From a virus, in the UHGV virus genome UHGV-0149956: a DNA stretch of 64,000 nucleotides; one strand, written 5' to 3'. Below the pieces are notes generated by a model that searched no databases, had not been told where the DNA came from, and saw nothing but the letters and a program-made list of their open reading frames with translations. Every line of letters begins with the position of its first letter. Position 1 is the first letter of the stretch. Shown piece after piece: positions 15,453-61,966 of this stretch. Position numbers and translations under genes: made by a program.

Positions 15453-15559
15453 GTATTTTTAAGTCGCGAATGCTATCTTTTCGCATCATATTGACCTTTT
15501 AATCGTTCAGGCTTATAGTTCCGCCGTCGTAGCAAATTCTGCGACCGGGTTTAGCAGCC

Positions 15560-15650
15560 TGAATGTTAGTGCGGACAACCGCAGATATCCGATATTGCGG
15601 TATTTTTGTGTCCGTAAAACCGCGTTACGCCCAAATTATGGTGGGGCGTG
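15560..15650 (+). ncRNA. Candidate c4-like antisense regulatory RNA region
   Basis: Structured segment (inverted repeats CGGACAA...TTGTGTCCG and CCGCAGATAT...ATATTGCGG) between the operator and icd, the expected place for c4 in an immI region; boundaries approximate. Confidence 0.3.
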
Positions 15651-15766
15651 ATGGGGAGGCTTCGGCCTGCTGGTTTCACTAACGCCAGTCTGCTAACCCC
15701 GTCACGTCCTGCCACCTGTTTAGCAGCGGGTAGCAGGTTGTTAAACCTGTTAGTGAGGCCGTAACT

Positions 15767-18859: not shown

Positions 18860-19155
18860 TAGATTGCTCTAATCTGGAGTCACCTGGCGTTTTCAGTTTG
18901 AGGTCGGAGATGCAATCTAATTTTTTACAGTTAGCGATCGCTTTTGCAGGATATGTTTGTATTGGCTTCTGTGTATACATGATCAGCCGAAAAATGCTTG
19001 TCGATATCGACCGCAAAGAACGAGCAGAGGAGATCTTAGTATGGATTTTCTTTGGCGCGGTCTGGCCATTAGGGATCATGTTTGCTGCAACATTTCTTCT
19101 GATGTGGATATTCACCCTTCCAGGTGATTTCTATAGAAAAAAAGCCAGACATTGA
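18829..19155 (+). CDS. Small membrane protein
   Basis: Two hydrophobic helices (LQLAIAFAGYVCIGFCVYMI, FGAVWPLGIMFAATFLLMWIF); true start may be internal near 18910. Confidence 0.35.
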   Translation: MGYTGRIQRVIDCSNLESPGVFSLRSEMQSNFLQLAIAFAGYVCIGFCVYMISRKMLVDIDRKERAEEILVWIFFGAVWPLGIMFAATFLLMWIFTLPGDFYRKKARH

Positions 19156-19259
19156 TACAATCGTTGCGGGTGCTTGAGGCTATCTGCTTCAGGCATTACC
19201 CGAAAAGCAGATAGAAGAAAGCCCCAGATAACATTACGCGTCCTGCAAGACGCTTAACA

Positions 19260-19335
19260 TTAATCTGAGGCCATATCTATGCTTAGCATACGTAGATTAG
19301 CCTCTTACCGACCAAAAGGTCAAGGAGAAGCAGGC
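19260..19335 (-). ncRNA. Expected sok-like antisense RNA of the hok locus (position inferred)
   Basis: Hok/Sok architecture places the antisense RNA opposite the mok leader; no promoter verified. Confidence 0.3.
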
Positions 19336-19485
19336 TATGAAGCAGCAAAAAGCGATGTTAATCGCTCTGATCGTCATCTGTTTAACCGTCATTGTGACGG
19401 CACTGGTAACGAGGAAAGACCTCTGCGAGGTACGAATCCGAACCGGCCAGACGGAGGTCACTGTCTTCACAGCCTACGAATCTGA
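19279..19485 (+). CDS. mok: Mok-like overlapping reading frame
   Basis: 68-aa ORF beginning upstream of and overlapping hok in another frame. Confidence 0.5.
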   Translation: MLSIRRLASYRPKGQGEAGYEAAKSDVNRSDRHLFNRHCDGTGNEERPLRGTNPNRPDGGHCLHSLRI

Positions 19486-19492
19486 AAGGTAA
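19337..19492 (+). CDS. hok: Hok/Gef-family type I toxin
   Basis: MKQQKAMLIALIVICLTVIVTALVTRKDLCEVRIRTGQTEVTVFTAYESER; close to the Gef/Hok sequence as recalled. Confidence 0.85.
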   Translation: MKQQKAMLIALIVICLTVIVTALVTRKDLCEVRIRTGQTEVTVFTAYESER

Positions 19493-19560
19493 GAGACCTG
19501 GCGGGGAGAGATCTCCGCCACTCTTAGTGTGTCAGGTATCCTCAATGCACCCTTTCATCT

Positions 19561-19588
19561 CCAAATAAAAAAGCTCCCGAAGGAGCTT
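19561..19588 (-). terminator. Rho-independent terminator (bidirectional hairpin)
   Basis: Stem AAGCTCC/GGAGCTT with CGAA loop; T-run on minus strand after the 169-aa gene. Confidence 0.6.
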
Positions 19589-24949: not shown

Positions 24950-25065
24950 GGCACTTGTGTGAATCCCTTTTCGGAAGAGATTTTATTGAAAGTCACTTGT
25001 TGACTTTCTCGTGACAAGCAATTTTTTTATTTTTTCGGGAGGAGGGGAGGAAGGTAAAATCCAAG

Positions 25066-25148
25066 GTGAAATCGTGGCGATTTCACCTTGAAATTTTAGA
25101 GTAATTTACTTTAAAAACAGTCAGTTAATAGTGAAATTTGAATGGCGA
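25066..25148. promoter_or_regulatory. parS-like partition site
   Basis: GTGAAATCGTGGCGATTTCAC and GTGAAATTTGAATGGCGA: ATTTCAC heptamers plus TCGCCA hexamers immediately downstream of parB. Confidence 0.65.
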
Positions 25149-25152
25149 AAGT

Positions 25153-26154
25153 TTAAGGCTTCGGCTTTTTATCGAGGCTCTTTCTAAGGATATGCCCAAT
25201 CATCCTGTCGAGTTCTTCCTGTAACTCTTTTGAGAGTCGATTAAACTCATAAGAAAATGCACGGCCTTTCACGCGCTTCCTTGCAAAGCGATCCTTGTCC
25301 TCAAATTTCCATAATTCAGTAACTACGGACTTATCTTTAGAACCTTTATCCGTGAGTAGTGAGGCTTCCTTTGTTATCAAGCGCAGGATTTTATTTTTAA
25401 CTTCATCTTCGGCCATTTCTTCAATGGATAAGATGTCGTTTATTTCCGGGGATATGTTTTGAATAAGCTGATCAAACTCTAAATTCTTGTTCCCCATTTC
25501 GTCGCCAACAGCACAAAGCGTTTTGTAGTCCGAAAAGGTTAATTCCGACTGCACAGGGAAAAGGGCGACTAATTCTTCCGGAGCACTCGCTGCCTGGAGA
25601 GCACGCGTGACCTTCGCCTGAGACAGCCCTTCTTTGGCTGCAATATCCTTCTGACTCATCCCATCATTTTTCATTCGCATCAAACGCAGACCTATTTCTC
25701 GAATGCTGTGCTGCAATGCTGTCTGAACGTCTTTCGCTAAATTTTGCGCTTCCTGAACGCTGATCTCCTGGTCCGTGACTAAAACCCGCAACCCTACGTT
25801 CTCTAAGATGGCAGAAGCTCGACGCCGGGAACCATCCAAAATTTCAATTTTCCCTGTAGCCCGTCTGACACCTATTGCAGGGTAAAATTGCTGATGCTTA
25901 ATAGTGCTTCGGATACTTTTTAATGATTTTGGCGTAAGAGATGCCTGGTCACGCCCGTTGTTATGCTGATCAACAAAGGTATCGCTTTCTACCTGGTTCG
26001 GAGGTATTACCTCTTCAATAAATGTGGCCTGGCGACCAGTTGATAACTTGAATACCTGCTCGACTCGATCGCCAGAGGCTGAAGAACTATCAAATCCGCT
26101 TAATATTGAAGGATTAAGGGTTCGCCCAATTGTTGGTCTGTTTTTCTTTGACAT
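25153..26154 (-). CDS. parB: Partition protein ParB
   Basis: 333 aa; ParB-like motif GSRRRASAILENVGLRVLV and HTH region; follows parA. Confidence 0.8.
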   Translation of the reverse strand: MSKKNRPTIGRTLNPSILSGFDSSSASGDRVEQVFKLSTGRQATFIEEVIPPNQVESDTFVDQHNNGRDQASLTPKSLKSIRSTIKHQQFYPAIGVRRATGKIEILDGSRRRASAILENVGLRVLVTDQEISVQEAQNLAKDVQTALQHSIREIGLRLMRMKNDGMSQKDIAAKEGLSQAKVTRALQAASAPEELVALFPVQSELTFSDYKTLCAVGDEMGNKNLEFDQLIQNISPEINDILSIEEMAEDEVKNKILRLITKEASLLTDKGSKDKSVVTELWKFEDKDRFARKRVKGRAFSYEFNRLSKELQEELDRMIGHILRKSLDKKPKP

Positions 26155-26170
26155 GGGGGTTTCTTACTCC

Positions 26171-27367
26171 TCAGTTAGATCTGATAAATTCAATACGGTC
26201 AAAAACTGCTTTAGCAAAATCTTCCGCAGCAATTCGCGCGTTCTTCAATGCATCAGCACTACCAACATACGTTGCCGGGTTAGCTGAAATAACAGTGTCA
26301 AAAGACTCGCCGCAGCGTTCAAAACCGTCAAGGCGAGGGAGGACAACATCAAGCATATCCCCACCGAACACTTCTTTAGCCAGGCTATGGCAATACTTAT
26401 GGTCTGCCTTGTTACTCAACTTGGACATAAATCCAATGTTAGTTGCAAGCTGACACTCACAGCCTTCATCCGAAATGAGTTTCACCAACTCAGGAAGGCG
26501 GGCAACGTATTTAAGCGATGAGTGGAAATCAACCGTTGCAGGCGGCAGAGGTGTAAACAGTATATTGGCCGAGGCCAAAGCATTTTTCAGGAAGGCGTCA
26601 AGGTGAGGACCACTATCAACGAGGATAAAGTCATAATCGCTCTTCAGCTTATCAATCACATTTTCTTTCAGGACTGCATGGATGTTCTGACCCGGTAGAT
26701 GCTCATTGCACAGCTCTCTCCAATCGGATGCAATAAAGGCATCGTCAATCGACGCAGGCATAACGTCAACCCCAGGTACAACAGAAGGAACAATAAACTC
26801 CTCTAACAGCTCTTCACGGCTTACATTCTGCAACATAGCCTGTGCAGATGTTGCGTTTACGATACCAATAGAGTGTTTATGGCTTAAAAACATCGTTGCT
26901 GAAGATTGCGGATCAAGGTCAATAACCAGAATCCTTAAATCTTCCATCAGAAGATGAGGATGAGCACGCATTGCATGCGCCAGAGAAACCGTCGATACAG
27001 TTTTTGACACACCGCCTTTAAGATTGGAGATGAAAATCACATACGCTTCGCTGTAGCGATCCCGGTATTTTGGCACTCCGCGATGTTCATATATGTCAAT
27101 GATGTTCTGAATTGACATCGCATATTTCATTGAAGAGCCAGCAGGGCGTTTATCGAAAACATAACCCTTTTCTTCCATTTCACTTACGGCATAGTCAACG
27201 TTCGCACGAGTCAGTAGAGGCAATTTTGCCAGTGCCGCTTTCGCATAGACCTGGTAAAACTCGTTCGCGTGTAGCTCATCCTTTTGCAACTGTACTTGTT
27301 CAGTCAGAACATTGAGCATTCTATTTGCTCTTTGAGCAACCTTGTGAAGCTGGCTGGAATCACTCAT
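26171..27367 (-). CDS. parA: Partition ATPase ParA (type Ia, long N-terminal extension)
   Basis: 398 aa; deviant Walker A NLKGGVSKT; ILVIDLDPQ motif. Confidence 0.85.
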   Translation of the reverse strand: MSDSSQLHKVAQRANRMLNVLTEQVQLQKDELHANEFYQVYAKAALAKLPLLTRANVDYAVSEMEEKGYVFDKRPAGSSMKYAMSIQNIIDIYEHRGVPKYRDRYSEAYVIFISNLKGGVSKTVSTVSLAHAMRAHPHLLMEDLRILVIDLDPQSSATMFLSHKHSIGIVNATSAQAMLQNVSREELLEEFIVPSVVPGVDVMPASIDDAFIASDWRELCNEHLPGQNIHAVLKENVIDKLKSDYDFILVDSGPHLDAFLKNALASANILFTPLPPATVDFHSSLKYVARLPELVKLISDEGCECQLATNIGFMSKLSNKADHKYCHSLAKEVFGGDMLDVVLPRLDGFERCGESFDTVISANPATYVGSADALKNARIAAEDFAKAVFDRIEFIRSN

Positions 27368-27535
27368 CGAAAGTCATCCTTTATGCTGTATTTTTGAATT
27401 TAATTAAAAATGCTGCATAAAATAATAATGTATGCGTAGATGCTTGTACATAGCATTCTCTGCATGTTTGGTTCATTTTGCACGATTGAGAGTTACAAGG
27501 AGGGCACAAAAAAGCCCCGTTCAGGGGCATCAGTG

Positions 27536-28345
27536 TTATTTGCTAAGAGCAGCGAATAATCGTTCGAAATCGATAGTATCTATAGCACGCGTAAGCGCCG
27601 GAAGTTCAGCCTCAAAGTACCCGTGTCGATCGTAAAAGAAGGGACCGAAGAGCGAGGCATGTTGGATTCTACTTCGCCCCAGCCCGGACACACAGTTAAG
27701 CCCATTACCGGCTAAAAGGCTAAAAAACTTCTCTGGATTATCGTGGTAAAGCTGGGAATCAATGGTGGCGGTTAACTCTTCCATAGGGAAGCACACCCGC
27801 CCTGTATCCCAGGGATATTTAGTCCGAAGCATAAACATTGCTTTCAGCAATTCACATTGAGCGCGGATCGCGTCCGGTTCATAGCCAGATATGGAGACAT
27901 AAGCCACGTCCCTCATTCCTGCGTCATCTTTGAAAGTCACGATAGAAGTAACATCCAGCTCTTTTTCGAAAGAGCAAGCAGCATCTACTGGACGCTGAAG
28001 TAAATCATTCGACTTAATGCGCTCGAGAATCCCTCCCCACATATCATTTAGATATTCGATATGAGCCAAAACCTTATCAAGACACTCTCGTGTAAACCAT
28101 TCAGTATGCCCGCCACCGACGCTTTTCTCCCACGGCGCATTCCAGGGGAAAAAGGTTGCGTGTAAAGCCCGCTCAAGATTAACCATTGCCAAACGCGTAC
28201 CACGATAGACCCGTGAAAGCGCAAAATCGGGACTCACTTGTAGTCCTTTAAACCGTGCCAATGGACCACATGAAATGCCGATTTTAAAAGTATCTCCGTT
28301 CTCTGGCACCAGAACGTAGAGGTAGTGTTGTTTCTCTTCTTGCAT
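27536..28345 (-). CDS. T5orf172/GIY-YIG-like domain protein (cargo gene between iterons and parA)
   Basis: N-terminus YLYVLVPENGDTFKIGISCGPLARFKGLQ fits the T5orf172 motif. Confidence 0.4.
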   Translation of the reverse strand: MQEEKQHYLYVLVPENGDTFKIGISCGPLARFKGLQVSPDFALSRVYRGTRLAMVNLERALHATFFPWNAPWEKSVGGGHTEWFTRECLDKVLAHIEYLNDMWGGILERIKSNDLLQRPVDAACSFEKELDVTSIVTFKDDAGMRDVAYVSISGYEPDAIRAQCELLKAMFMLRTKYPWDTGRVCFPMEELTATIDSQLYHDNPEKFFSLLAGNGLNCVSGLGRSRIQHASLFGPFFYDRHGYFEAELPALTRAIDTIDFERLFAALSK

Positions 28346-28380
28346 ATCAATACCACTGCTTGATGAGAACCGCGCAAATG

Positions 28381-28518
28381 TTGACTATGCGCGAAGGTTA
28401 ATGTGAATAGTTGACTATGCGCGATGTGACTACAGTCAAAAGTTGACTGTAGTCGATTTAACTCCACCAAAGATCGACTATGTAAGATATTGTCGGGAGA
28501 AACGTTGACTATACGCGA
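28381..28518. repeat. Iteron array downstream of repA (incA-like copy-control locus)
   Basis: TTGACTATGCGCGA at 28381 and 28411, TTGACTGTAGTCGA at 28443, TTGACTATACGCGA at 28505, plus inverted GTGACTACAGTCAA. Confidence 0.7.
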
Positions 28519-28637
28519 TGAAATGCCCCTAAAAGCCATCTCAATAGCGACTTGCAGAATATTGACGCCAGCAAAAATCCACCAGCGTCAACGAATGTCG
28601 CCTATAGTCAACTTCTCGCTATCGCATATAGTCAATA

Positions 28638-29522
28638 TTATGGATTGCGCTTATGGATCTGGAAGCCGATTTTCCTGCCGTTTTTTATCTCTGAAAATTT
28701 AAGATATTCAATAGCTTCCAAATCTTTCATGGCTTTTCTGATAACGCTATTTTGCACGCTAACGGATGATTTGAGATTAAGCCTCGCTCTAAGGCGCTCA
28801 ATGCTGACAGGTGCCGGGTTGGCGGGTAGAGCCTCAAAGAATGTATACAGTACCTTGGCCGTCTCTTTGCGCCCTAGTTTATCCAGCATCTTCAGCTTCA
28901 GGATTCGCTTATAGTCAACATAGTAAAGTTCAGATAGCTGTTTCTGCGGCTGGATCTCGATAACATCAAGCTCGGTATTCAGGCTGCTATATGCCAACAA
29001 GTTGACGTTAATGTTATTGAGATGACCTTTTGCCGCCGGGAAGCGGAATTTGACAACTGTCTGCTGAATGCGTGTCAGAGAGTCATCAATACTTTTACGG
29101 AACGCCTTTGAAAGGCGCTTACGTGGATAGCCGCATCGATCGGCAAACTCGGAGAATGGCAGGGTGATTATGCCGTCATCATCAGGTGCGTAGTCAAACA
29201 ACGCGGAAGTTATGCCCACCCACACCTTAAAATCAGTATCCATATCCAGGCGTGGACCATGAATTTCAATTCCCTCATAGCCTTCCTGCTCAACAATTTT
29301 GAGGCTTGATAGTTCTTCAGTTGCGTTCGTTGTGTTTGTTGTAACTGACGATCCGCGACGTAGCGCCACATTGGTAGATTTTAAGGTTGGCACAAACACA
29401 CCTAAGCGCAACAAAGCGATGGGTTGTATAGTGCTGTTGTTATTGGGCTTCAGGCTGTGGATTTCTCCTGTATTTCCTGCAACTTCTTCAACGCTAAGGA
29501 AGCCTTTACTTTCTTCCGGCAT
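28638..29522 (-). CDS. repA: Iteron-binding replication initiator RepA (RepFIB/P1 RepA family)
   Basis: Motifs NNNSTIQPIALLRLGVFVPTLKS, ITGPRLDMDTDFKVWVGI, AKVLYTFFEALP; ATG at 29522 with GGAG 9 nt upstream. Confidence 0.8.
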   Translation of the reverse strand: MPEESKGFLSVEEVAGNTGEIHSLKPNNNSTIQPIALLRLGVFVPTLKSTNVALRRGSSVTTNTTNATEELSSLKIVEQEGYEGIEIHGPRLDMDTDFKVWVGITSALFDYAPDDDGIITLPFSEFADRCGYPRKRLSKAFRKSIDDSLTRIQQTVVKFRFPAAKGHLNNINVNLLAYSSLNTELDVIEIQPQKQLSELYYVDYKRILKLKMLDKLGRKETAKVLYTFFEALPANPAPVSIERLRARLNLKSSVSVQNSVIRKAMKDLEAIEYLKFSEIKNGRKIGFQIHKRNP

Positions 29523-29603
29523 CACGGTTTCTCCATGTGTGGCGCGGCCTGACGTCAATTTGGATGGCTGTTATCAACAGCTGTGAATATTCAGACTCTA
29601 AAA

Positions 29604-29814
29604 TCGCTTACAGTCAATGTTTCTGTCGCGTATAGTCAACAATAAATCGCGTGCAGTCAACAATAAATCGTGCACAGTCAACATAAAATCGCGTATAGTC
29701 AATGTTGATCCCATTTCAGGCCAGTAATGACGCGGCTTACAGCGATCCGGGATCTTCTTTGGATCTTCCTAGGTTCTCTTTAGGATCTGTTTATTGGATC
29801 TATGCTGTGGATAA
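29604..29814. other. Plasmid origin region: iterons, GATC cluster and DnaA box (oriR/incC-like)
   Basis: Five iterons CGCGTATAGTCAA-like at 21-22 bp spacing (29604-29701), five GATC within 29744-29800, DnaA box TGTGGATAA at 29806-29814. Confidence 0.7.
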
Positions 29815-29857
29815 GTTGAATAAACCGGCCAACAAAGCCGGTTGGAAGGAAGTCATA

Positions 29858-30250
29858 TTATTCTACGCTTTCGATAAGAAGACCATGTTCATAACATTTA
29901 AGCTCATCGCCTTCATACAGGAATTGGTATCCAACACCACCATCTTCATGGACATTAGGGAATAACTCATAACTCACTGAAGAGCAAATCACACCAATGC
30001 AGCGATCAACTCCTTCTCGTTCTTCAGTGCTGAAAAAATCCTCTTCGGTAAGAACATGAGTACATTGCTCATCAGCATAGGTCGGAAATACATGCTCAAT
30101 GCAATCCGGGTGTTTTAAACCAAGCTGATCGGCAAGCTCGAAAGCACGACGGTATTGTTCAGATCCTGGCTTGCCAACAGTGATTTGCTCAATTTTGTAG
30201 ATTGAAGTCGCTTTGTTGATAGTTTGCTTTACTGTTACTTTATCAGACAT
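29858..30250 (-). CDS. Hypothetical acidic protein
   Basis: 130-aa ORF downstream of origin; hairpin 29824-29850 after its 3' end. Confidence 0.4.
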   Translation of the reverse strand: MSDKVTVKQTINKATSIYKIEQITVGKPGSEQYRRAFELADQLGLKHPDCIEHVFPTYADEQCTHVLTEEDFFSTEEREGVDRCIGVICSSVSYELFPNVHEDGGVGYQFLYEGDELKCYEHGLLIESVE

Positions 30251-30261
30251 AAAAATCCCTT

Positions 30262-30516
30262 TTAGTTACCGCTAATAGCTCGGTTGTAATCATTAACGTT
30301 GCGATTCTTCCTGTTAATCCCCATCAGCATCGTTTCTGTATCGAGGATATACGCTGGCAGATCATCAAAATATTCACTGCTAAACTCTGGCATCCTGCAC
30401 ATAAATGCACTTTTGGGGGCAGGGTGGTTAACCTTTGTCGGCGTCGGCGTTAAATTCGCTGATCGACTCCCGGAGCAACCGCTGAGTGTCAGCAGGAATA
30501 CGCTGGCGAACATTAC
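30262..30516 (-). CDS. Outer-membrane lipoprotein, o-spanin-like (Rz1-type), overlapping frame
   Basis: Lipobox LLTLSGC followed by Pro-rich TPTPTKVNHPAPKS; start inside the upstream gene in another frame. Confidence 0.45.
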   Translation of the reverse strand, partial: VMFASVFLLTLSGCSGSRSANLTPTPTKVNHPAPKSAFMCRMPEFSSEYFDDLPAYILDTETMLMGINRKNRNVNDYNRAISGN

Positions 30517-30850
30517 CCGCCGCAACCAGTTGTTTCTGAACTTCAGCTTTTCGTTCCATTTGCCTGTCAGCATACTTGGCTTGTTCTGATTCATTTTTCA
30601 CTTCCTGGCTGTGAAAATGTTGCTCTGCTTTGTTCATCGTCTCGATGGTCTGGTTAAGATCCATTATTGACTTATCACGTTCCTTAACAGCCTGATCAAG
30701 ACTGCCAATTTTCTCCATGGCTTGCTTTAGCTGATGACGTTCCCATGCAAACCCAGCACCAACAAGTGCGCAAATCAGAACAAGAACACCAGTAGCAGCA
30801 AGTTTCTCCTTCAAAGACAAAGCTGTTTTTAACGTAGAAAAGAATGACAT
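30428..30850 (-). CDS. Membrane-anchored coiled-coil protein, i-spanin-like (Rz-type)
   Basis: N-terminal TM helix GVLVLICALVGAGFAW then charged coiled-coil; 3' end overlaps the lipoprotein gene. Confidence 0.45.
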   Translation of the reverse strand: MSFFSTLKTALSLKEKLAATGVLVLICALVGAGFAWERHQLKQAMEKIGSLDQAVKERDKSIMDLNQTIETMNKAEQHFHSQEVKNESEQAKYADRQMERKAEVQKQLVAAGNVRQRIPADTQRLLRESISEFNADADKG

Positions 30851-30889
30851 GTCTTCCTCCTGAAGAAAAATTATCAATGAAGTCCTTTG

Positions 30890-31735
30890 TTACTGTGCCG
30901 CTTTGTTTAATTCATCAAGAACAGAATCAGGAACCAAAGCGGCGACTGCGCTGGATGTGCTGGTCTTATTTGCTGATGCTTCCGCAAGCGCGGTACCGAT
31001 AGCATGGTTATAAGCAGTTATGGCTACGTTGGCGCTTTCCTTCGCTCGTTCATACTGCTGTTGTAACGCAGTTGTGGGCGCTGTTGTCTGGTTGAAAACA
31101 ACCCCAAACTGTTCAGTTGCTACTTTCAGAGATTCAATTTGCTCTTCTGTTAGTGCTGGTGGGGGAGTGGCAGTGCCGCCGCCTGAACCAGAGCCTGACG
31201 AGCTTCCTGAGCCAGTGTTAAGGGTCTGGTTAATCTCCCCCATAGCAGCGACTAAACTTGATGTATTAAGCGCGTTAACAGCGTCCTCAAGCGATTTAGT
31301 AATATTCACATCACCAATGGCAATAGAGATCGGCAGTTCTGAAACTTCTCGCTCATTAGCACGGCAGTAAACATCCCAACCAATATCGAGTTGAAGCAGC
31401 ATTGACAGATCTGCATAACCAGCCAACAGGTCCGCGTGCTTAGTTGCCAGTTCTCCAATGTTCGTTAAGCCGGTTGTGGTTGTTCTGATCGTTGAAACAT
31501 AGCTGGTAATAGTGTCGGGATAGACAATTGTATCCAGAATTAATCCGGTCAATTCTTCTGCAAGCAGTTTTGCTGTGTTAGCACTGTTTCGTGCCGATGT
31601 TATGGCACCAGGTGTTTTCATCCCACCGGCGGCGGCCAATTTTTTATATGCGGATAACTGGTAGTCTTTTTCCAGCATGATATCTCCTAACTTACCTGAA
31701 CCAGGCCGTCTCCGGACGCTACGGTAGATCCGCAT
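30890..31735 (-). CDS. Hypothetical protein with Gly/Ser linker
   Basis: 281-aa ORF with SGSGSSSGSGSGGG tract; start possibly internal. Confidence 0.35.
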   Translation of the reverse strand: MRIYRSVRRRPGSGKLGDIMLEKDYQLSAYKKLAAAGGMKTPGAITSARNSANTAKLLAEELTGLILDTIVYPDTITSYVSTIRTTTTGLTNIGELATKHADLLAGYADLSMLLQLDIGWDVYCRANEREVSELPISIAIGDVNITKSLEDAVNALNTSSLVAAMGEINQTLNTGSGSSSGSGSGGGTATPPPALTEEQIESLKVATEQFGVVFNQTTAPTTALQQQYERAKESANVAITAYNHAIGTALAEASANKTSTSSAVAALVPDSVLDELNKAAQ

Positions 31736-31971
31736 GAAACAGGGTCACCAACGCATACGATCCCTTTACCATTGACGGTAAACCATGCCCTGGTTGATAT
31801 AGCTTGCCCACCGTGCGTACTGTTTCCATCGGTATGCTGTGCATATTGCTTACCATCAACTAACACTTCTACTCCGTTGACTTTAAGTAGTGGTTCACTC
31901 TCTACAGGAGGCCTGGATGGGAATCCTCCGTGCCCCGAACAAATGCTGTCTTTTGTTGCAATACTTGCCAC
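31687..31971 (-). CDS. PAAR-like domain protein
   Basis: 94 aa, Gly/His/Cys-rich with PAAR-like spacing (SGHGG, HGG, VCVGDPVSCGSTV). Confidence 0.45.
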   Translation of the reverse strand: MASIATKDSICSGHGGFPSRPPVESEPLLKVNGVEVLVDGKQYAQHTDGNSTHGGQAISTRAWFTVNGKGIVCVGDPVSCGSTVASGDGLVQVS

Positions 31972-32052
31972 GTCATCACCAATTATTTGCTCTGATTTTC
32001 GTTATTTTAACTCAGGTTGTTTGTGGTCTAAATGGAGTTCAATTATTGCAAA

Positions 32053-32069
32053 ATTGCTCTAATAAATAT
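32053..32069 (+). promoter_or_regulatory. C1-repressor-type operator 17-mer upstream of uhr-hrdC-dmt
   Basis: ATTGCTCTAATAAATAT. Confidence 0.65.
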
Positions 32070-32140
32070 TGTTTTTTATGTCGTATTTTCGGTACCATTC
32101 AGCCATCGCCCTTCAATGGGCATTTGTTTGGAGTCGTCAG

Positions 32141-36253: not shown

Positions 36254-36329
36254 GATGGTGTAGCTCAGCGGTTAGAGCGGTTGACTGTTAATCAACGGGT
36301 CGATGGTTCAAATCCATCCACCATCGCCA
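36254..36329 (+). tRNA. tRNA-Asn (anticodon GTT)
   Basis: Cloverleaf built by hand: acceptor GATGGTG/CACCATC, D-stem GCTC/GAGC, anticodon loop CTGTTAA, T-arm GATGG-TTCAAAT-CCATC, 3' GCCA. Confidence 0.85.
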
Positions 36330-36331
36330 AT

Positions 36332-36407
36332 GCCGGTTTAGCTCAGTTGGTAGAGCGCCTGCCTTGTAAGCAGGATGTCAGCGGTTCGAGTCCGTTAATC
36401 GGCACCA
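36332..36407 (+). tRNA. tRNA-Thr (anticodon TGT)
   Basis: Acceptor GCCGGTT/AATCGGC, anticodon stem CCTGC/GCAGG with loop CTTGTAA, T-loop TTCGAGT, 3' ACCA. Confidence 0.85.
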
Positions 36408-36420
36408 GCACAACAGGTAA

Positions 36421-36484
36421 GGGTATTTTGCGACGTCGGAGATCGCCGAGCTTGGCAGAGGGTTCGAATCCCTACGAAGTACCC
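36421..36484 (+). ncRNA. Truncated tRNA-like element (acceptor, D-like and T arms, no anticodon arm) within an extended helix
   Basis: GGGTATT...AGTACCC acceptor pairing, GCGA/TCGC stem, canonical T-loop TTCGAAT; flanking CAACAGGTAAGGG / CCCTTACCGTTG extend the helix. Confidence 0.3.
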
Positions 36485-37097
36485 TTACCGTTGTGATGAA
36501 GTGCAGCTCTTTGAAGCAACCAGAAGATAAGCATCTGGCTTCACAACATAAACCGCAGGAACGACCAATAAACGGTAGTCCGTATGGAGAACACCCCGTT
36601 GAGGAAGAGGCCTGGCCGGAACCGTAACCGGCACTACAACGTTGAGAACACTGGCGTAACGGGGTCATATCCCAATCTACGAATAAATGTTGCGTTGCAG
36701 CGTGACAACCAGTGTTCTCAACATTGTGGTGAATGCACAGGCTGATGTGCCGCAACTACAGTAGTGCGCGCTTTGCGGGGCTTGCTACAACCCTGTGTCG
36801 GAGTTCAGCACCGACCATCACAGTTCGATTCTCTGGCATGAGCATAACGCTGAAATAAGTCCAGTCTGGTGCGGCCCGATCACCCGCCGTTAGCTCCACG
36901 AAACGGAGCACGTAACAGGTAAGAGCATTCTCCTGTAACGGGTTCATATCCCAATCTACAGGTCCACCAGGAATGCTCTTTCCGTTGCGGTGAATGCGGC
37001 TAAGCGCACGCGGAACAGTTAAAACAATCCTCCTTAATGGTTAAACATTCCGGCGTTAATTGTTAACTGGTTAACGTCACCGGGAGGCACTCGGCAC

Positions 37098-37114
37098 CGC
37101 AATCTAATAAATAT
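37098..37114 (+). promoter_or_regulatory. Degenerate C1-operator-like site upstream of the TerB-ban operon
   Basis: CGCAATCTAATAAATAT, 11/17 to recalled consensus with conserved CTAATAAAT core. Confidence 0.3.
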
Positions 37115-37138
37115 GTCACTTTTATTGAGGGATAACCA

Positions 37139-37573
37139 ATGTTCGGTAAATTGTTCGGCAAGAAAGTCGCTTCTGCAAAAGTAGAGCTGAAAAAAGTTGA
37201 GAATCGCGATCTGATGGAGGCCATCATCGGTGGCTGTTTGTTGGTGTCTGCCGCTGATGGTGAAATCGAAAAAGAAGAAACAGCGAAACTTGATCAGCTT
37301 GTCCGCTCTAATCCGCGTCTTAGTCATTTTGGTAACGAAATTACTGCAACAATTACCCGCTTTACCGAGCAACTGGAAGCTGGCTTCCGTGTTGGTCGCA
37401 TGAATATCCTTCGCGAAATTGAAGATATCAAAAACGATCCAAAAGAAGCGGAAGAAGTATTCGTTAACATGCTGACAATTGCAGAAGCGGACGGTGAAAT
37501 CGAGCCAGCAGAACACAAAGTACTGGAAGAAGTAGGCCGTCGTTTGGGTCTTCGTGTGGAAGATTATCTGTAA
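37139..37573 (+). CDS. TerB-like (tellurite-resistance family) protein
   Basis: 144 aa with duplicated ADGEIE-x-EE motif characteristic of TerB. Confidence 0.6.
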   Translation: MFGKLFGKKVASAKVELKKVENRDLMEAIIGGCLLVSAADGEIEKEETAKLDQLVRSNPRLSHFGNEITATITRFTEQLEAGFRVGRMNILREIEDIKNDPKEAEEVFVNMLTIAEADGEIEPAEHKVLEEVGRRLGLRVEDYL

Positions 37574-37737
37574 TGGCAAGCAAGGCACGTATCGCAATCG
37601 CCATTGGTTTTCTCTTGCTGTCCGTGCTGGTGGATTTCACCAGCACAATCCTGTCAGTTTTATCGGACGGGGCGTTGGTGGCAGTAGCTGTAACATTGGT
37701 ATGGCCGATATTAAAAACAGCTTCTAAGGATCAGTGA
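37573..37737 (+). CDS. Small hydrophobic membrane peptide (54 aa)
   Basis: MASKARIAIAIGFLLLSVLVDF...; start overlaps TerB stop (TAATG); not in ORF track because shorter than 60 aa. Confidence 0.45.
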   Translation: MASKARIAIAIGFLLLSVLVDFTSTILSVLSDGALVAVAVTLVWPILKTASKDQ

Positions 37738-37844
37738 TGGGCTTCTGGGATTTTGCTGACAAGCATCCAATTGTTCTCGTTGTCATTGCTGGCATAGTTG
37801 TAGGCGGTATTGCTGGCGTCATAGAAGCACTCAGGAAACAGTAA
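37737..37844 (+). CDS. Small hydrophobic membrane peptide (35 aa)
   Basis: MGFWDFADKHPIVLVVIAGIVVGGIAGVIEALRKQ; TGATG overlap with preceding ORF. Confidence 0.4.
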   Translation: MGFWDFADKHPIVLVVIAGIVVGGIAGVIEALRKQ

Positions 37845-37847
37845 TCC

Positions 37848-37923
37848 GGCCCTTTAGCTCAGTGGTTAGAGCTGGCGACTCATAATCGCACGGTCACCGG
37901 TTCAAGTCCGGTAGGGGCCACCA
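37848..37923 (+). tRNA. tRNA-Ile2-like (anticodon CAT; could be read as Met)
   Basis: Close to E. coli ileX as recalled: GGCCCTT acceptor, anticodon loop CTCATAA, T-arm ACCGG-TTCAAGT-CCGGT, 3' ACCA. Confidence 0.8.
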
Positions 37924-51678: not shown

Positions 51679-52407
51679 ATGAAAGGCGAAGTGAAAGAGC
51701 GCGGCATGATTTTCAACGATGAGATGGTCCGGGCCATCATCGAAGGAAGGAAAACGCAGACGCGGCGGATAATGAAAAATCAGCCTGCGGAAGTTGGTCC
51801 AGAAGCACCAGTGATGGTTAGAAAAATTGGTGCAGGTTTTCAGTGGTACGGGGCTGATGGTGTAAGCAGTGTCTTCAATTGCCCCTTTGGTATCGTCGGC
51901 GATCGAATTTGGGTTCGTGAAACATGGGCGATATTAGGCAATGAGGATGGTTGTAGTGTGGACTGGAACGACAACCTTTGTCGTGGTGATGAGAAGAACG
52001 CAGCAAGGATTTATCGGGCCAGTTGTGAGCAAAAGCCTGGTGATTACGGCTTATGGTCGATACCCGATGATGCCGACTGGAAACCTCACACTGTGAATGA
52101 AAAGTTTGATGGTGGGTGGCGTCCATCAATTCACATGCCGCGATGGGCATCACGCATTCTGTTGGAAATTACCAACGTGCGCGTTGAGCGGTTGAACGAT
52201 ATCAGCGAATGCGATGCAGGGGCTGAGGGCGTTCCGCCTGCTGGAAGTTTGCTTCCTGATTACCCGGAAACATTCCTTACTCCCAAGGGGGATTTCGCAA
52301 TGGCCAAGGTTGCGTTCCAGCGTCTGTGGGAATCCATCTATGGTGAAGAAAGCTGGAACGCTAATCCCTGGGTATGGGTAATTGAGTTTAAGCGCATTCA
52401 GGAATAA
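51679..52407 (+). CDS. Hypothetical protein
   Basis: 242-aa ORF, first gene after operator; conserved-looking N-terminus MIFNDEMVRAIIEGRKTQTRR. Confidence 0.4.
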   Translation: MKGEVKERGMIFNDEMVRAIIEGRKTQTRRIMKNQPAEVGPEAPVMVRKIGAGFQWYGADGVSSVFNCPFGIVGDRIWVRETWAILGNEDGCSVDWNDNLCRGDEKNAARIYRASCEQKPGDYGLWSIPDDADWKPHTVNEKFDGGWRPSIHMPRWASRILLEITNVRVERLNDISECDAGAEGVPPAGSLLPDYPETFLTPKGDFAMAKVAFQRLWESIYGEESWNANPWVWVIEFKRIQE

Positions 52408-52410
52408 ACC

Positions 52411-52596
52411 GTGAGTATGCATCAAGTCGTCAGCTTTTCAGGTGACGGGATTGCCAGAATGTATGCCGACAGCGACTACAGAAATTTGTATCAGGCGATG
52501 GTGCAGGCCAAGCGGTTTGATACTGGTTCGTGTTCCGAATCATGTGAAATCTGGGGTGACCAATTGGAGTTGAAATTCGAAGAGGTAGTGGCATGA
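52411..52596 (+). CDS. Small hypothetical protein
   Basis: 61-aa ORF, 4-nt spacing from neighbours. Confidence 0.3.
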   Translation: MSMHQVVSFSGDGIARMYADSDYRNLYQAMVQAKRFDTGSCSESCEIWGDQLELKFEEVVA

Positions 52597-52796
52597 CAAT
52601 CGTAAAAACCCATACCGGTACCGTGATCACCAAAGATGGCCCGCAGGTAAAAAAACTGCACCAAACAGAGCGGATGTGGGTCGTTGGCAAAAACGAGTTT
52701 TACCACAAAGAAACTGGACGCCGCCATTTTGCAGAAAATACGCGCCGCCGACTGCTGTTAGACACCATCAAGCCTATCGAGGTGAAGCATGTTTAA
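52593..52796 (+). CDS. Small hypothetical protein
   Basis: 67-aa ORF with ATGA coupling. Confidence 0.3.
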   Translation: MTIVKTHTGTVITKDGPQVKKLHQTERMWVVGKNEFYHKETGRRHFAENTRRRLLLDTIKPIEVKHV

Positions 52797-53028
52797 ACAG
52801 AACGAAAAAGCTATCGCTCAAATTGCTGATTATATCCCGCGTGCGTGCCGGGGTATGCAGTTGCAGGAAGCCAAAGCGCGCCTGGAGAAAAAAATTGCGC
52901 TCTATATTGATGACGGCTGTGATGCCGCCGTTCTTAACGAGGCGTTCGCACCAGCTCTTAACAGTCATACTCGGGAGTCCTTTCTTTCGTGCATCGCAGC
53001 GCAACTCCACCAAGGAGGCATCCAGTGA
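52789..53028 (+). CDS. Small hypothetical protein
   Basis: 79-aa ORF; ends with HQGGIQ followed by AAGGAGG-N-GTG junction. Confidence 0.3.
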   Translation: MFKQNEKAIAQIADYIPRACRGMQLQEAKARLEKKIALYIDDGCDAAVLNEAFAPALNSHTRESFLSCIAAQLHQGGIQ

Positions 53029-53669
53029 GTAACCGTTTTTACATGATGTGCTTGCGTGAAACTGTGGGTAATAACGCCTCATTCCATTGCCATAACGGCA
53101 ATGGTTACAGTTCTGATATCGATCGCGCTCATGTTTACACGCTGGAAGAAGCCCAAAAAGCCTGGAATTGTGGGCGAGATATCGATCAGCCTGTTTGTGC
53201 CGATAGTGTGGATGCAATTGCTGTGTGGCACGTTGATTGCCAGTACATCCCTACAGAAAGCCTGATTGAGTCAGATTGCACTGCGTATGTGGCCTACAAA
53301 AAAGGTAGCTGGAACGGCAACGATGTTTACTGGCTTCAACACGGTGGATTGCCAACAGATGATTTCAGTAAAGCGACCATCTTTAGCGTCGCCAACAAAA
53401 ACGAACCAGGAATAGTTTGGTTGCCATTTCCCATTGCTGATGCAGCAAAGCGCCGGACGTTCAATATCAATAACTTTAACCGCAGAACAATGGTTCAGGG
53501 CGCAGGTTTGGTCATGCCTGACTGGTTGAAAGAGCAGAACAGAAGAAAGAAGTCGCGAAGCGGGAAGGTGCGTTGGAATTGTCCGCATTGCGGAAAAATC
53601 ACCTGGCAGTACAGCCCATATGATTTTGAAGGCTGTAGTGATTACAACTGTGAAGGATGGCGAGAATGA
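53025..53669 (+). CDS. Cys-rich hypothetical protein (zinc-ribbon-like C-terminus)
   Basis: GTG start with AAGGAGG SD; C-terminus CPHCGKITWQ...CSDYNCEGW. Confidence 0.35.
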   Translation: MSNRFYMMCLRETVGNNASFHCHNGNGYSSDIDRAHVYTLEEAQKAWNCGRDIDQPVCADSVDAIAVWHVDCQYIPTESLIESDCTAYVAYKKGSWNGNDVYWLQHGGLPTDDFSKATIFSVANKNEPGIVWLPFPIADAAKRRTFNINNFNRRTMVQGAGLVMPDWLKEQNRRKKSRSGKVRWNCPHCGKITWQYSPYDFEGCSDYNCEGWRE

Positions 53670-54349
53670 CAATTGACTATCAGGTACTGCGCGAGGCGGC
53701 GGAACAGGCAACGCAAGATGAATGGGTAGCATATATTTTGCCGGGGCAAAACGGCACTTATCCTGCGCATACGTCTGAGGGTAGGCATTGCGGATACTTT
53801 ATTGACTGGCCTGGCATTGATGGACAGAGAAACGCTGGTGCCAATGCCCGTTATATCGCGGCTATCCCACCCAAAGTTGTGCTGGCTCTACTGGATGAAA
53901 TTAAGCGCCTGGAGGACACAAATATTGATGCTATGTGTCGAATTGCAGAGCTTGAGACTAATCTCGCGGCGCTGGTGGCGGAGAATGTGGGGCTAAAGGC
54001 GATATGTGATGACCGTCGCAGGTTCATCATGAATGGGGTGCAGATGGGTTATATCAAGGTGCCAGCAGCGGAAACAGATCCAGACCTTGAGACAATTCGC
54101 ATTGCTATATCACCACAAAAGCCCATTCCAGCCACTGATGCTTTCCTGTCTGAAGTGCGGGCGCAGGGGGTGGATGCTGCTATAGAAGCTGCAAAAAATC
54201 TGGTGGTCCAAGAATATGAGTATAAGGATTTCAAAGCGGCGCAGAGTGATTGCTGTATGCACCCTGGTTCAGACCTGGTAGGGAAGGTTGAAATGACTGA
54301 GTGGTTAGTTGACTTTGCTGCCCAGCTTCGCAAAGGAGGCAACCAGTGA
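53666..54349 (+). CDS. Ead/Ea22-like protein (paralog 1)
   Basis: N-terminus IDYQVLREAAEQ and VVLALLDEIKRLED shared with next gene. Confidence 0.4.
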   Translation: MTIDYQVLREAAEQATQDEWVAYILPGQNGTYPAHTSEGRHCGYFIDWPGIDGQRNAGANARYIAAIPPKVVLALLDEIKRLEDTNIDAMCRIAELETNLAALVAENVGLKAICDDRRRFIMNGVQMGYIKVPAAETDPDLETIRIAISPQKPIPATDAFLSEVRAQGVDAAIEAAKNLVVQEYEYKDFKAAQSDCCMHPGSDLVGKVEMTEWLVDFAAQLRKGGNQ

Positions 54350-54942
54350 GCGAAATTAATTACCAGGCACTGCGTGAGGCAGCACAGAACGCGAAAGATT
54401 TAGGTGAGATTAAGAATTACAAGCGAGGTGAGCAAGCTGTTGCCGAATTTGAGTCCTTAATAACGCCACGCATTGTGCTGGCGCTTCTGGATGAACGGGA
54501 AAGAAACCAGCAATACATCAAACGTCGCGACCAGGAGAACGAGGATATTGCGCTAACGGTAGGGAAACTGTTAATCGAAAACGGTCAGCTTGTTGCCGAT
54601 ACGCTACGCCACTTAGCTGATAACGAAATCGACTCTGATTATTTTGCTATCACCTCAACGAATGAGAACGGTACTGAAATTGATCATGAGATGGCTATTA
54701 CCGATTACGCACTGCAAGCTGCCGGAACTGTAGACGAATTGGTTGCAGCGCTGGAATCCGCAGAGAAGCGCATAGCAGAACTGTCTGCTAGCCACAGCAA
54801 ATTGCGCGACACAATGGCTGGCATCCACAACACAATCCGAATGGATGGCGGATATACGCCACTGACAGCAATCCTTAACGCTGCTAAACGCGCATATGAA
54901 GAATCAGCAAGCGCAGCTGGCATTCGCATCAAAGGAGAGTGA
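54346..54942 (+). CDS. Ead/Ea22-like protein (paralog 2)
   Basis: INYQALREAAQN and IVLALLDERERN; GTG start after AAGGAGG. Confidence 0.4.
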   Translation: MSEINYQALREAAQNAKDLGEIKNYKRGEQAVAEFESLITPRIVLALLDERERNQQYIKRRDQENEDIALTVGKLLIENGQLVADTLRHLADNEIDSDYFAITSTNENGTEIDHEMAITDYALQAAGTVDELVAALESAEKRIAELSASHSKLRDTMAGIHNTIRMDGGYTPLTAILNAAKRAYEESASAAGIRIKGE

Positions 54943-54943
54943 T

Positions 54944-55459
54944 ATGGCGTTAACACACCGCGAACTCTGTCAGATTGCGTACAAGTTCCTTAAGCGCAAC
55001 GGGTTCAAGGTTTGTTTTCATGACCGCTTTATAGCTGTAACCAGTACCGGAGAACAGCCAGATGCTATGGGATTCAGAAATTCAGCATCATGCCTGATAG
55101 AGGCGAAATGTTCTCGTGCTGACTTGTTGGCAGATAGAAAAAAGCGTTTTCGTAAAAATCCGTCTCTTGGAATGGGAGACTGGCGATTCTTTATTAGTGA
55201 GCCGGGAATTATTTCAATTGAGGATTTACCACCTGGCTGGGGATTACTTCACGTTGTTAACGGAAGAGTACGGAAAGTACATGGGTGGCCCAAGGGTAAT
55301 TGCTGTTGGGGTAATCCTGACGATAAGCCATTTACTGGAAATAAGCAGGTTGAATGCGATTACATGTTATCTGCATTAAGGCGCATGGAGTTGAGAGGGC
55401 ACCTTAATGAAATATATGACGGTGTAATTGTTAATAAGAAAGAAGGAAACGCGGCATGA
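54944..55459 (+). CDS. Hypothetical protein
   Basis: ORF with start at MALTHREL immediately after upstream stop. Confidence 0.3.
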   Translation: MALTHRELCQIAYKFLKRNGFKVCFHDRFIAVTSTGEQPDAMGFRNSASCLIEAKCSRADLLADRKKRFRKNPSLGMGDWRFFISEPGIISIEDLPPGWGLLHVVNGRVRKVHGWPKGNCCWGNPDDKPFTGNKQVECDYMLSALRRMELRGHLNEIYDGVIVNKKEGNAA

Positions 55460-55842
55460 TCACTATTACCAAAGAGCGACTGCTGACAATCAAGCAGTGG
55501 CGCGAAACATACGGACCGGGTAGCAACGTTGTACTGCCAGCAGAAGAAGCGGAAGAACTGGCACGAATTGCTCTGGCATCGCTGGAAGCAAAACCAATAG
55601 GTGCATTCCACATTGCAGAACAGCAAGTTGACGGCACAAGTGACTACATCAAGGATGGGGAGTGGCCTATTGATAATGGAATTATTGAGGTCTACGCCGC
55701 TCCCCCCGTTCCAGTAGTACCGGAAGAAAAACCAATGCCTAATCCTCTTAGCATGTACGCGGTTGATGCTGTTGCCGCTATTGCAGAGGTAAGAGGCTGG
55801 AATGCCTGCCGCGCGGCTATGCTTCATGGGAAAGGAAAGTGA
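55456..55842 (+). CDS. Hypothetical protein with ALASLEA motif
   Basis: 128 aa; ARIALASLEAKP shared with the 423-aa protein. Confidence 0.35.
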   Translation: MITITKERLLTIKQWRETYGPGSNVVLPAEEAEELARIALASLEAKPIGAFHIAEQQVDGTSDYIKDGEWPIDNGIIEVYAAPPVPVVPEEKPMPNPLSMYAVDAVAAIAEVRGWNACRAAMLHGKGK

Positions 55843-55843
55843 T

Positions 55844-56065
55844 ATGGCTAACTCATTACTTGAAACCTGCAACAACTGGCAGATTCAGAGGGCGGAGATT
55901 TTATCTCGCAATCCAGATATGGCAATGACAATTGATAATCTGGACACGCTAATTGAACGGACCGTGCGTTCTGCAATTGATATAGCACATCGAGTGGATT
56001 GGGATTTCAGAGAAGCGGAGCGGCTTGCTAAAGAGCAGGAGAAAGCAGCGGGTAAAGGAGACTGA
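55844..56065 (+). CDS. Small hypothetical protein
   Basis: Start at MANSLLETC after upstream stop. Confidence 0.3.
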   Translation: MANSLLETCNNWQIQRAEILSRNPDMAMTIDNLDTLIERTVRSAIDIAHRVDWDFREAERLAKEQEKAAGKGD

Positions 56066-56066
56066 T

Positions 56067-56264
56067 ATGGATAAAAACACCACTGCTTACTGGAATCTGT
56101 CACTTGATACCGAATGCCCAAAATGCGGTCACAATTTCGATCTGCTTTGTGATCCAGATTTCTGGGAATTTTCTGGAGCAAAACAGGCATGTGAAGAAAT
56201 AAAAGGTTACGAAACATGCTGTCCAGAATGTAACCATGAATTTAAAACAGATTTTGTGTATTGA
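56067..56264 (+). CDS. Small zinc-ribbon protein
   Basis: CPKCGH...CCPECNH two CxxC pairs. Confidence 0.35.
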   Translation: MDKNTTAYWNLSLDTECPKCGHNFDLLCDPDFWEFSGAKQACEEIKGYETCCPECNHEFKTDFVY

Positions 56265-56274
56265 GGCATAACGA

Positions 56275-57546: not shown

Positions 57547-57610
57547 GCTGGCCTGAAGCATTCACCACGGTAGGAATTGTGATGGCGGCAGCACTGGGTT
57601 TGTATTCAAT

Positions 57611-57862
57611 TTGTCGCTGGTGGTAACGATGGGAAAAATAACTTTTGTAGTCGAATTTGAGGATGGTAAAGAGCCACCTGTTAGCGCCAATCTTGATGTT
57701 GCTGGTGGCAGGCTTGTTTCGGTTCTATTTGGTGACTACCGAGATGATTTCTTCCAACCAGAAGAAGTTGATGTGGTGCGAGAGGCATTAAACGAGTTAA
57801 GTGTTGATAACGATGATGCTCATGCGGAAATCATCCAAAAAATGGAGCTGCTAACTCACTAA
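57611..57862 (+). CDS. Small hypothetical protein
   Basis: 83-aa ORF. Confidence 0.3.
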   Translation: MSLVVTMGKITFVVEFEDGKEPPVSANLDVAGGRLVSVLFGDYRDDFFQPEEVDVVREALNELSVDNDDAHAEIIQKMELLTH

Positions 57863-57910
57863 ATTATCAATTATGGTGCTATCACCTACGACACCGAGAG
57901 AAAATTTATA

Positions 57911-58333
57911 ATGTCAAAAGTAAATGTTTTGATTTTTCAGCAATTGTTGGCTTTGGTTTTACTGCCGGAGTGCAGATTTATATTACGTGGGAAAAAATCA
58001 TCAACTACGCATGGAGTTGTTTTATTAAGTGAGGTAAGTATGTGGAGAGGTAATAGTCATGGCAAAAGCCAGATGATACTTACCGAATATCAGCTCGACC
58101 ACAAAACCAATAAATCACGTTCAGTATATTTGCTTCGCCACAATAGCCGCGTAAGGAATACCGTACTGGAGCAAAATCTGACCGTTGAAATGGATAATTA
58201 CGGGGGCTTCAAGCCAACAATATCGCTTGATGATTTTCCTCGTGGTTTAAGCGAAAGAGAAGCAATGCTGAAATTAGCAGAATGGCTACAAAGATTAAGC
58301 ATTGCTATTGAAGATAACTGGTCTGAACCTTAA
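57911..58333 (+). CDS. Hypothetical protein
   Basis: 140-aa ORF. Confidence 0.3.
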   Translation: MSKVNVLIFQQLLALVLLPECRFILRGKKSSTTHGVVLLSEVSMWRGNSHGKSQMILTEYQLDHKTNKSRSVYLLRHNSRVRNTVLEQNLTVEMDNYGGFKPTISLDDFPRGLSEREAMLKLAEWLQRLSIAIEDNWSEP

Positions 58334-58339
58334 ATTAAT

Positions 58340-60728: not shown

Positions 60729-60742
60729 GCATCTCTCCCCTT

Positions 60743-60775
60743 TGAGGCCACAACTAGTGGCCTTAAACAATTTGT
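60743..60775 (+). terminator. Rho-independent terminator
   Basis: GGCCAC-aacta-GTGGCC hairpin followed by T-rich run. Confidence 0.55.
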
Positions 60776-61947: not shown

Positions 61948-61966
61948 TTATTGAGGTGAAAACGCT

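Follow-up and report, generated by a model that had tools for sequence, protein, structure and literature searches.

The overlapping ppfA/mlp genes of a P1-like phage-plasmid: a probable two-component spanin, apparently remotely related to P2 LysB/LysC

Among the two-component spanins, a class first defined by Summer 2007 and delineated here by the criteria of Kongari 2018 (PMC6139136), the overlapped architecture is the commonest (228 of 528 systems), and the overlapped o-spanin genes are usually missed by gene callers, which is a recognised annotation bias. The biology of these proteins has been established for lambda Rz/Rz1 (PMC9025707, which cites Berry 2008 and Rajaure 2015). For phage P1, the supplementary spanin table of Kongari 2018 (PMC6139136) lists gp064 (PpfA) and gp063 (Mlp) as an overlapped ('ovl') i-spanin/o-spanin pair that makes up family 'P1', with zero periplasmic cysteines in the i-spanin and one in the o-spanin; the identification of the P1 pair as spanins is credited to Summer 2007 (as cited in PMC9025707). 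According to Bednarek 2022 (PMC9025707), ppfA and mlp partially overlap and belong to an operon that is unlinked to lyz and lydAB, and such a placement away from the lysis genes is called atypical there. The o-spanin and i-spanin labels are swapped in the same paper; by sequence and by the Kongari 2018 table, PpfA is the membrane-anchored protein and Mlp is the lipoprotein. The P1 reference annotation (NC_005856) is noncommittal, with ppfA described as 'possible periplasmic function' and mlp as 'membrane lipoprotein precursor', and gives the gene order parA, incA, repA, oriR, upfA, mlp, ppfA, upfB, upfC, followed by the divergent, C1-controlled dmt operon. A literature search for a later experimental test of the spanin function of P1 ppfA/mlp found none.

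The pair described here is located in UHGV virus genome UHGV-0149956, which was analysed as a single stretch of 64,000 nucleotides (hereafter, the window). The whole window is collinear with P1 (OP279344, coordinates 32590 to 83180) except for a few replaced blocks, and the region around the pair (29800-31800) shows 95.8-98.8% DNA identity to P1, P7, SJ46, RCS47, JL22 and vB_EcoM-Ro157c2YLVW. The encoded PpfA is identical to P1 PpfA at 139 of 140 positions, and the encoded Mlp to P1 Mlp at 110 of 110. Judged by its sequence, the window is a P1-like phage-plasmid, and both sequence and gene neighbourhood identify the pair as the orthologues of P1 ppfA and mlp (SpaninDB family 'P1'). The literature and a curated spanin table already include the pair, the overlap of its two genes and its separation from the other lysis genes of P1, so that ppfA/mlp carry little weight as a discovery. 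The practical value of the present comparison is in the confirmation that the often un-annotated mlp is a real, selected gene, and in the assignment of the P1 pair to the remote relatives of P2 LysB/LysC instead of those of lambda Rz/Rz1.

The longest open reading frame for ppfA (30877..30428) begins with a TTG; within it, the ATG at 30850 (stop at 30428), which serves as the annotated start in P1, has an AGGAGG Shine-Dalgarno sequence 5 nt in front of it (Table 1). Residues 17-35 of PpfA form the sole hydrophobic stretch of the protein (Kyte-Doolittle 19-residue maximum 2.35) and are preceded by Lys8, Lys14 and Lys16, an arrangement that suggests one transmembrane segment near the N-terminus and type II topology, as is characteristic of i-spanins. 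The other 104 residues are abundant in E, Q, A and K and include zero cysteines, so that an i-spanin dimer linked by disulfide in the manner of lambda Rz is impossible. The AlphaFold2 model of PpfA, built from a 16-sequence alignment, contains helices at 13-110 and 120-137 separated by a break at 111-119 (mean pLDDT 71.6). The heptad a/d contrast is 0.78, a value matched by 1.6% of shuffles in what is a crude test, and resembles those of lambda Rz and P2 LysB. With moderate confidence, the periplasmic domain of PpfA is predicted to be largely alpha-helical or coiled-coil, with a break, which again is typical of i-spanins.

The mlp gene runs from an ATG at 30594 to a stop at 30262, in the +1 frame relative to ppfA, and continues for 166 nt past the ppfA end; it overlaps ppfA in the gene position that characterises o-spanins. 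Its AGGAAG Shine-Dalgarno sequence sits 6 nt before the ATG, and the same site reads AGGAGG in the relatives from Cronobacter, Klebsiella and Salmonella. Both open reading frames are on the minus strand and share 167 nt. The first-pass annotation had described an overlapping-frame pair with a membrane protein starting at about 30850 and a lipoprotein with the lipobox LSGC, and all these features are present; the lipobox cysteine is residue 40 of Mlp. The residue at +2 is Ser, followed by Gly, and there is no Asp at +2, so that the lipobox and the sorting signal both appear to be those of an outer-membrane o-spanin. LipoP places the cleavage of Mlp at position 39 (Kongari 2018, PMC6139136). The mature part of 71 residues has one further cysteine besides that of the lipobox and 6 prolines (8.5%), 4 of the 6 within the first 25 residues; the mature part had been called Pro-rich, and this description holds for its N-terminal end but not overall, given the 24% proline of Rz1. 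The signal peptide is long, with 39 residues of which 27 form a basic n-region (30513-30594), and P1 Mlp has been flagged for a 'Too long signal sequence' (Kongari 2018, PMC6139136). A second in-frame Met is found 12-16 residues before the lipid-bearing cysteine (M28 here, M25 in relatives), and the distal ATG with its Shine-Dalgarno sequence is conserved in all relatives examined. The AlphaFold2 model of Mlp is of low confidence (pLDDT 57.6) and was left out of the evidence.

Table 1. Features of the ppfA/mlp locus and its surroundings (positions are those of the window, except for the relatives, which are given by locus).
Feature	Position	Strand	Basis
upfC, spike-tip protein of PAAR type, at the head of the same-strand string	31687..31971	-	PAAR matches, P1 annotation, cryo-EM
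upfB, baseplate 'tripod' protein in P1, directly upstream neighbour	30890..31735	-	P1 annotation, cryo-EM
ppfA Shine-Dalgarno AGGAGG	30856..30861	-	sequence reading; AGGAGG kept in relatives
ppfA, i-spanin candidate, 140 aa	30428..30850	-	ORF, start site, P1 identity, phrog_89, AF2 helices
Predicted PpfA transmembrane segment LAATGVLVLICALVGAGFA, codons 17-35	30746..30802	-	Kyte-Doolittle and AF2
mlp Shine-Dalgarno AGGAAG, within ppfA codons Q-E-V	30601..30606	-	sequence reading
Dual-coding overlap, 167 nt	30428..30594	-	PpfA C-terminal 55 codons with Mlp signal peptide and first mature residues
mlp, candidate o-spanin; precursor of 110 aa, mature lipoprotein of 71 aa	30262..30594	-	ORF, P1 identity, PHROG, hhalign
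Mlp lipobox L-S-G-C, Cys40	30475..30486	-	sequence; variants LSAC, LNAC, LNGC in relatives
upfA, last gene of the string, begins 11 nt after mlp stop	29858..30250	-	P1 annotation
Terminator-like hairpin just past upfA	29829..29845	-	consensus scan; site total not above chance
Plasmid origin iterons, 21-bp spacing	29599..29706	.	oriR/incC in P1 annotation
Post-mlp region in relatives	L007 5600-5959, L010 5600-5953, L008 5424-5977		

The overlapping frame was compared with P1-like plasmids of Cronobacter, Klebsiella aerogenes and Salmonella, the PpfA proteins of which are about 60% identical to that of the window, and with a 94-kb viral contig with 31% PpfA identity. All these relatives share the +1-frame overlapped arrangement of ppfA and mlp: in each, the +1 frame is open for 109-123 codons, with a start codon at the equivalent site after AGGAGG, a lipobox (LSAC, LNAC or LNGC), the second cysteine and the C-terminal motif FMC.MP...DDLP.YI.D....L..INRKN.NVN.YNR. 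Loss of the lipoprotein frame in relatives had been named beforehand as an outcome that would refute the spanin reading, and the opposite was found, the frame being kept down to 31% PpfA identity. In the part of the locus that belongs to mlp only, differences affect 20-29 of the 56 third positions of mlp codons compared with 16-17 of the 110 first and second positions (Fisher p = 2e-3 to 6.5e-7). Divergence in the 167-nt overlap (22-25%) is lower than in the part specific to ppfA (39-40%), as expected under dual coding, and in the most distant relative the identity of Mlp (51%) exceeds that of PpfA (31%). The conservation of the frame, the lipobox and the start, together with the codon-position bias, shows that the lipoprotein frame is a real gene under selection, and both ppfA and mlp evolve under clear purifying selection across the elements of Escherichia, Salmonella, Cronobacter and Klebsiella and the relative at 31% identity.

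By HMMER, the PpfA family proper is essentially confined to P1-like elements. An exhaustive search of 1.84 billion representative proteins produced only 37 PpfA matches, 3 of them both remote and full-length. One of the remote matches (P0102) is again encoded in a P1-like contig, with unchanged synteny, and loci of another (P0107), sought in viral and metagenome contigs, were not found there. A tblastn search of 50,697 phage records is in agreement, with the pair detected only in P1-like phages and in Cronobacter phage JK004, so that no homologue could be placed in a canonical lysis cassette in that way. A scan of genome contigs yielded three loci only, all near-identical. The mlp gene is usually omitted or shortened by gene callers, and its database entries are few.

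Database proteins of 193-195 aa (P0002, P0031, P0038, P0046, P0055 and P0066) consist of the PpfA N-terminus running in-frame into the Mlp C-terminus, with five junctions, after K85, Q97, V104, R125 and K138. Three of these junctions were compared by eye with the overlap in the window (30428-30594), and a single-base deletion accounts for each. The fusion proteins are probably products of pseudogenes or of assembly errors; the clusters of intact PpfA (834 and 274 members) far exceed the fusion clusters.

The two same-strand genes upstream of the pair code for virion parts. In the 2026 cryo-EM study of P1 (PMC12810830), UpfC is a PAAR-type spike tip and UpfB is a trimeric 'tripod' bound to UpfC; neither PpfA nor Mlp is reported in this virion structure. 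The true start of upfB may be internal, at MLEKDYQ. The gene that follows mlp differs by lineage, being upfA here and in P1, and a gene of the Phage_gp49_66 family (PF13876) in the Cronobacter and Salmonella relatives; in the Klebsiella aerogenes relative, there is no called gene after mlp. The first-pass annotation had put the pair next to the plasmid origin, and indeed only upfA separates mlp from the iterons (29599-29706), with repA at 28638-29558. It had also put the pair away from other lysis genes, which is correct, but the pair is not isolated: it follows upfC and upfB. The same annotation had advised looking for a holin and an endolysin elsewhere in the element: a search of the window for P1 lyz, lydA, lydB and lydC, and for the open reading frames downstream of lyz (the lydD/lydE site), revealed no homologue. 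In P1, the lyz and lyd genes are about 32-43 kb from ppfA/mlp, outside the region covered by the window. Location in a holin-endolysin cassette, which is usual but not obligatory for spanins, is not seen for ppfA/mlp.

The only intergenic room for a promoter of the upfC-upfB-ppfA-mlp-upfA string is 31972-32100, and the C1 operator that belongs to the divergent dmt promoter (~32053-32070) lies in the same interval. There are also two leftward-facing sigma-70-like sites in it, both weak (32032-32004 and 32010-31982); neither the sigma-70 scan nor the terminator scan gave more sites than expected by chance. When a late-promoter motif was derived from LPlyz, plausible sites appeared elsewhere in the window and none near the gene string, a weak negative given how crude the motif is, and the P1 annotation shows no Lpa-type late promoter upstream of the upfC-upfA string.

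The partition and replication module with parB, parA, repA and the iterons (25000-29806) is 99% identical to those of SJ46, RCS47, JL22 and phi456 ('RepFIB' type), and megablast of this module against P1 gave no match. From 29806, which is 52 nt from the upfA stop, the sequence is homologous to P1 again, and this places the boundary of a replicon swap beside the spanin gene string. A sok antitoxin RNA (19168-19342, plus strand; Rfam RF01794, 114.9 bits), which implies a hok/sok module, lies within a block (18873-19567) without a match in the P1 reference, roughly at the P1 rlfA/rlfB site. The P1 isolate used for mapping lacks an accessory block of ~10 kb (52300-62250), in which genes for two Ead/Ea22-like proteins and a DUF551 protein are found; this block is mosaic in relation to P7, SJ46 and lambdoid/Stx phages. 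The regions 15513-15719 and 36254-37923 comprise the C4 antisense RNA with its a1/b1 targets (immI region) and three tRNA genes (Asn-GTT, Thr-TGT and Met-CAT) that match those annotated in P1.

Profile searches link the pair to known spanin families. PpfA matches phrog_89 'Rz-like spanin' with an E-value of 1.2e-25, and P2 LysB matches the same family at 5.8e-61; Mlp matches phrog_30284 (3e-57) and phrog_456 (8e-5), and P2 LysC matches phrog_456 (1.7e-31) and the Mlp family phrog_30284 (5e-4). When the Mlp alignment was compared with P2 LysC by hhalign, a match with 91.6% probability (E = 8e-7) was obtained over 61 columns; in it, the second Mlp cysteine is paired with a cysteine of LysC, and the lipobox cysteine columns are offset by one. 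The direct hhalign profile comparison of PpfA with LysB gave no significance, and the NCBIfam LysB model TIGR03495 scored 19 bits on PpfA, far below its cut-off of 92.75. In Pfam (E = 0.01), there was no spanin family for either PpfA or Mlp, with two sub-threshold matches of coiled-coil type only. Of the spanin profile search that had been suggested as a check, the PHROG part is positive, Pfam yields no spanin family and the NCBIfam LysB model falls far short. Given the shared PHROGs and the Mlp-LysC match, and yet the score far below the LysB cut-off and the lack of significance in the direct PpfA-LysB comparison, the pair appears to be a remote relative of LysB/LysC and not an equivalog.

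Taken together, the two genes in the window are ppfA and mlp as carried by a P1-like phage-plasmid, and it is highly probable that they form a two-component spanin. The support comes from the layout of the genes, the signals for membrane insertion and lipidation, the identity with P1, the remote homology to LysB/LysC and the purifying selection in two frames; the overlapped-spanin interpretation of the first-pass annotation is in accord with the P1 gp064/gp063 'ovl' entry of Kongari 2018 (PMC6139136). Under this interpretation, PpfA would be held in the inner membrane by its N-terminal helix, with the N-terminus in the cytoplasm and a helical rod of ~100 residues extending into the periplasm, and Mlp, once exported and lipidated at Cys40, would be sorted to the outer membrane and reside in its inner leaflet. 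Through their periplasmic parts, the two proteins would then bind each other to form a bridge threaded through the peptidoglycan. Once the holin LydA has triggered and the SAR-endolysin Lyz has digested the wall, the bridges would be free to cluster and change shape, and, by drawing the membranes together, could bring about their fusion or rupture, so that the last barrier to phage release would be gone. Complex formation, dependence on the endolysin and membrane fusion are proposed for PpfA/Mlp by analogy with lambda Rz/Rz1.

Some observations fit poorly with a plain lysis function. In a CRISPRi knock-down study, ppfA (EOP 1.3 and 1.2) and mlp (EOP 0.24 and 0.19) were scored as non-essential, on plates with 5 mM Ca and 5 mM Mg, and lambda Rz was essential in the same study. 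Given the CRISPRi, promoter and signal-peptide oddities, an additional role, or a role with different timing, has a small probability. It can also be imagined, as an unlikely variant, that the P1-type pair is not timed as a late lysis function but is made early or constitutively and regulated after translation. This could be suggested by the C1 operator beside the only room for a promoter in combination with the missing late-promoter motif, and likewise by the tail-tip genes that precede the pair, the adjoining plasmid origin, the unusually long, conserved, basic signal peptide of Mlp with its second in-frame start closer to the lipobox, and the non-essentiality of the knock-downs even with Ca and Mg present. 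If so, long and short forms of Mlp, or a second role in the envelope of the lysogen, would be possible. Much the same evidence, namely the location of the pair, with the plasmid replicon next to it and two baseplate-tip genes ahead of it, the prediction of sigma-70-type promoters only, with the C1 operator close by and no late-promoter motif, and the dispensability for plaque formation, could be explained by an envelope-spanning pair that serves some purpose besides lysis, such as superinfection exclusion, lysogenic conversion or an accessory function to UpfC/UpfB. This, too, is improbable: the +1 overlap, the transmembrane segment and the lipobox are the defining signature of spanins, in their commonest class (228 of 528), the remote homologues LysB and LysC of P2 are members of a holin-endolysin cassette, and both PpfA and Mlp are unreported in the P1 virion structure (PMC12810830).

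The dispensability of the pair in the presence of Ca and Mg, along with the 193-195-aa PpfA::Mlp frameshift fusions that are found in databases with five different junctions, would also be compatible with a decaying or redundant spanin of the LysB/LysC type in a phage that disrupts the outer membrane in another way. Such decay is quite improbable in view of the clear purifying selection on both frames, including in the relative at 31% identity, and of clusters of intact PpfA (834 and 274 members) that are much larger than those of the fusions. That ppfA is the sole gene, with the lipoprotein ORF open by chance, has next to no probability. The frequent omission or shortening of mlp by gene callers and the paucity of database entries might be cited in its favour, but under-calling of overlapped o-spanin genes is a recognised annotation bias, and chance is refuted by the conservation data: the ORF length, start codon, Shine-Dalgarno sequence, lipobox and second cysteine are all retained, the codon-position bias reaches p values down to 6.5e-7, and the identity of Mlp to the most distant relative stays at 51% where that of PpfA drops to 31%. 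A two-component spanin encoded by ppfA and mlp is the explanation favoured here.

As such, the pair can be compared with three known systems. With lambda Rz/Rz1, to which the first-pass annotation had likened it, the pair shares the architecture, that is, a type II inner-membrane helical protein and an outer-membrane lipoprotein encoded in its +1 frame, and Rz1, like Mlp, is a lipoprotein with one further cysteine. The likeness does not extend to sequence homology, which was rejected (hhalign probability 1.8%; the lambda proteins belong to phrog_13 and phrog_3198), and BLASTP against Rz/Rz1 detected only a resemblance in the signal peptide and the Pro stretch. Furthermore, Rz1 is wholly embedded and, when mature, has 41 aa with 24% Pro, in contrast to the 71 aa and 8.5% Pro of Mlp; Rz has cysteines beyond the membrane segment whereas PpfA has none; and Rz/Rz1 closes the S-R-Rz lysis cassette whereas the P1-type pair is not in a cassette. 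P2 LysB/LysC appear to be the nearest characterised relatives, sharing phrog_89 and phrog_456 with PpfA/Mlp and likewise forming an overlapped pair in which the lipoprotein gene extends past the inner-membrane gene, with products comparable in size to PpfA and Mlp (LysB 141 aa, LysC 96 aa). Unlike PpfA, LysB has periplasmic cysteines, and lysB/lysC directly follow the holin Y, endolysin K and lysA genes, in contrast to the P1-type pair, which is unlinked to lysis genes. P1 itself has the same genes with the same overlap and the same neighbours, in the order upfC-upfB-ppfA-mlp-upfA beside the plasmid origin, and differs from the window in the replicon next to them, the rep/par module of the window being of the SJ46/RCS47/JL22 type and not that of P1.
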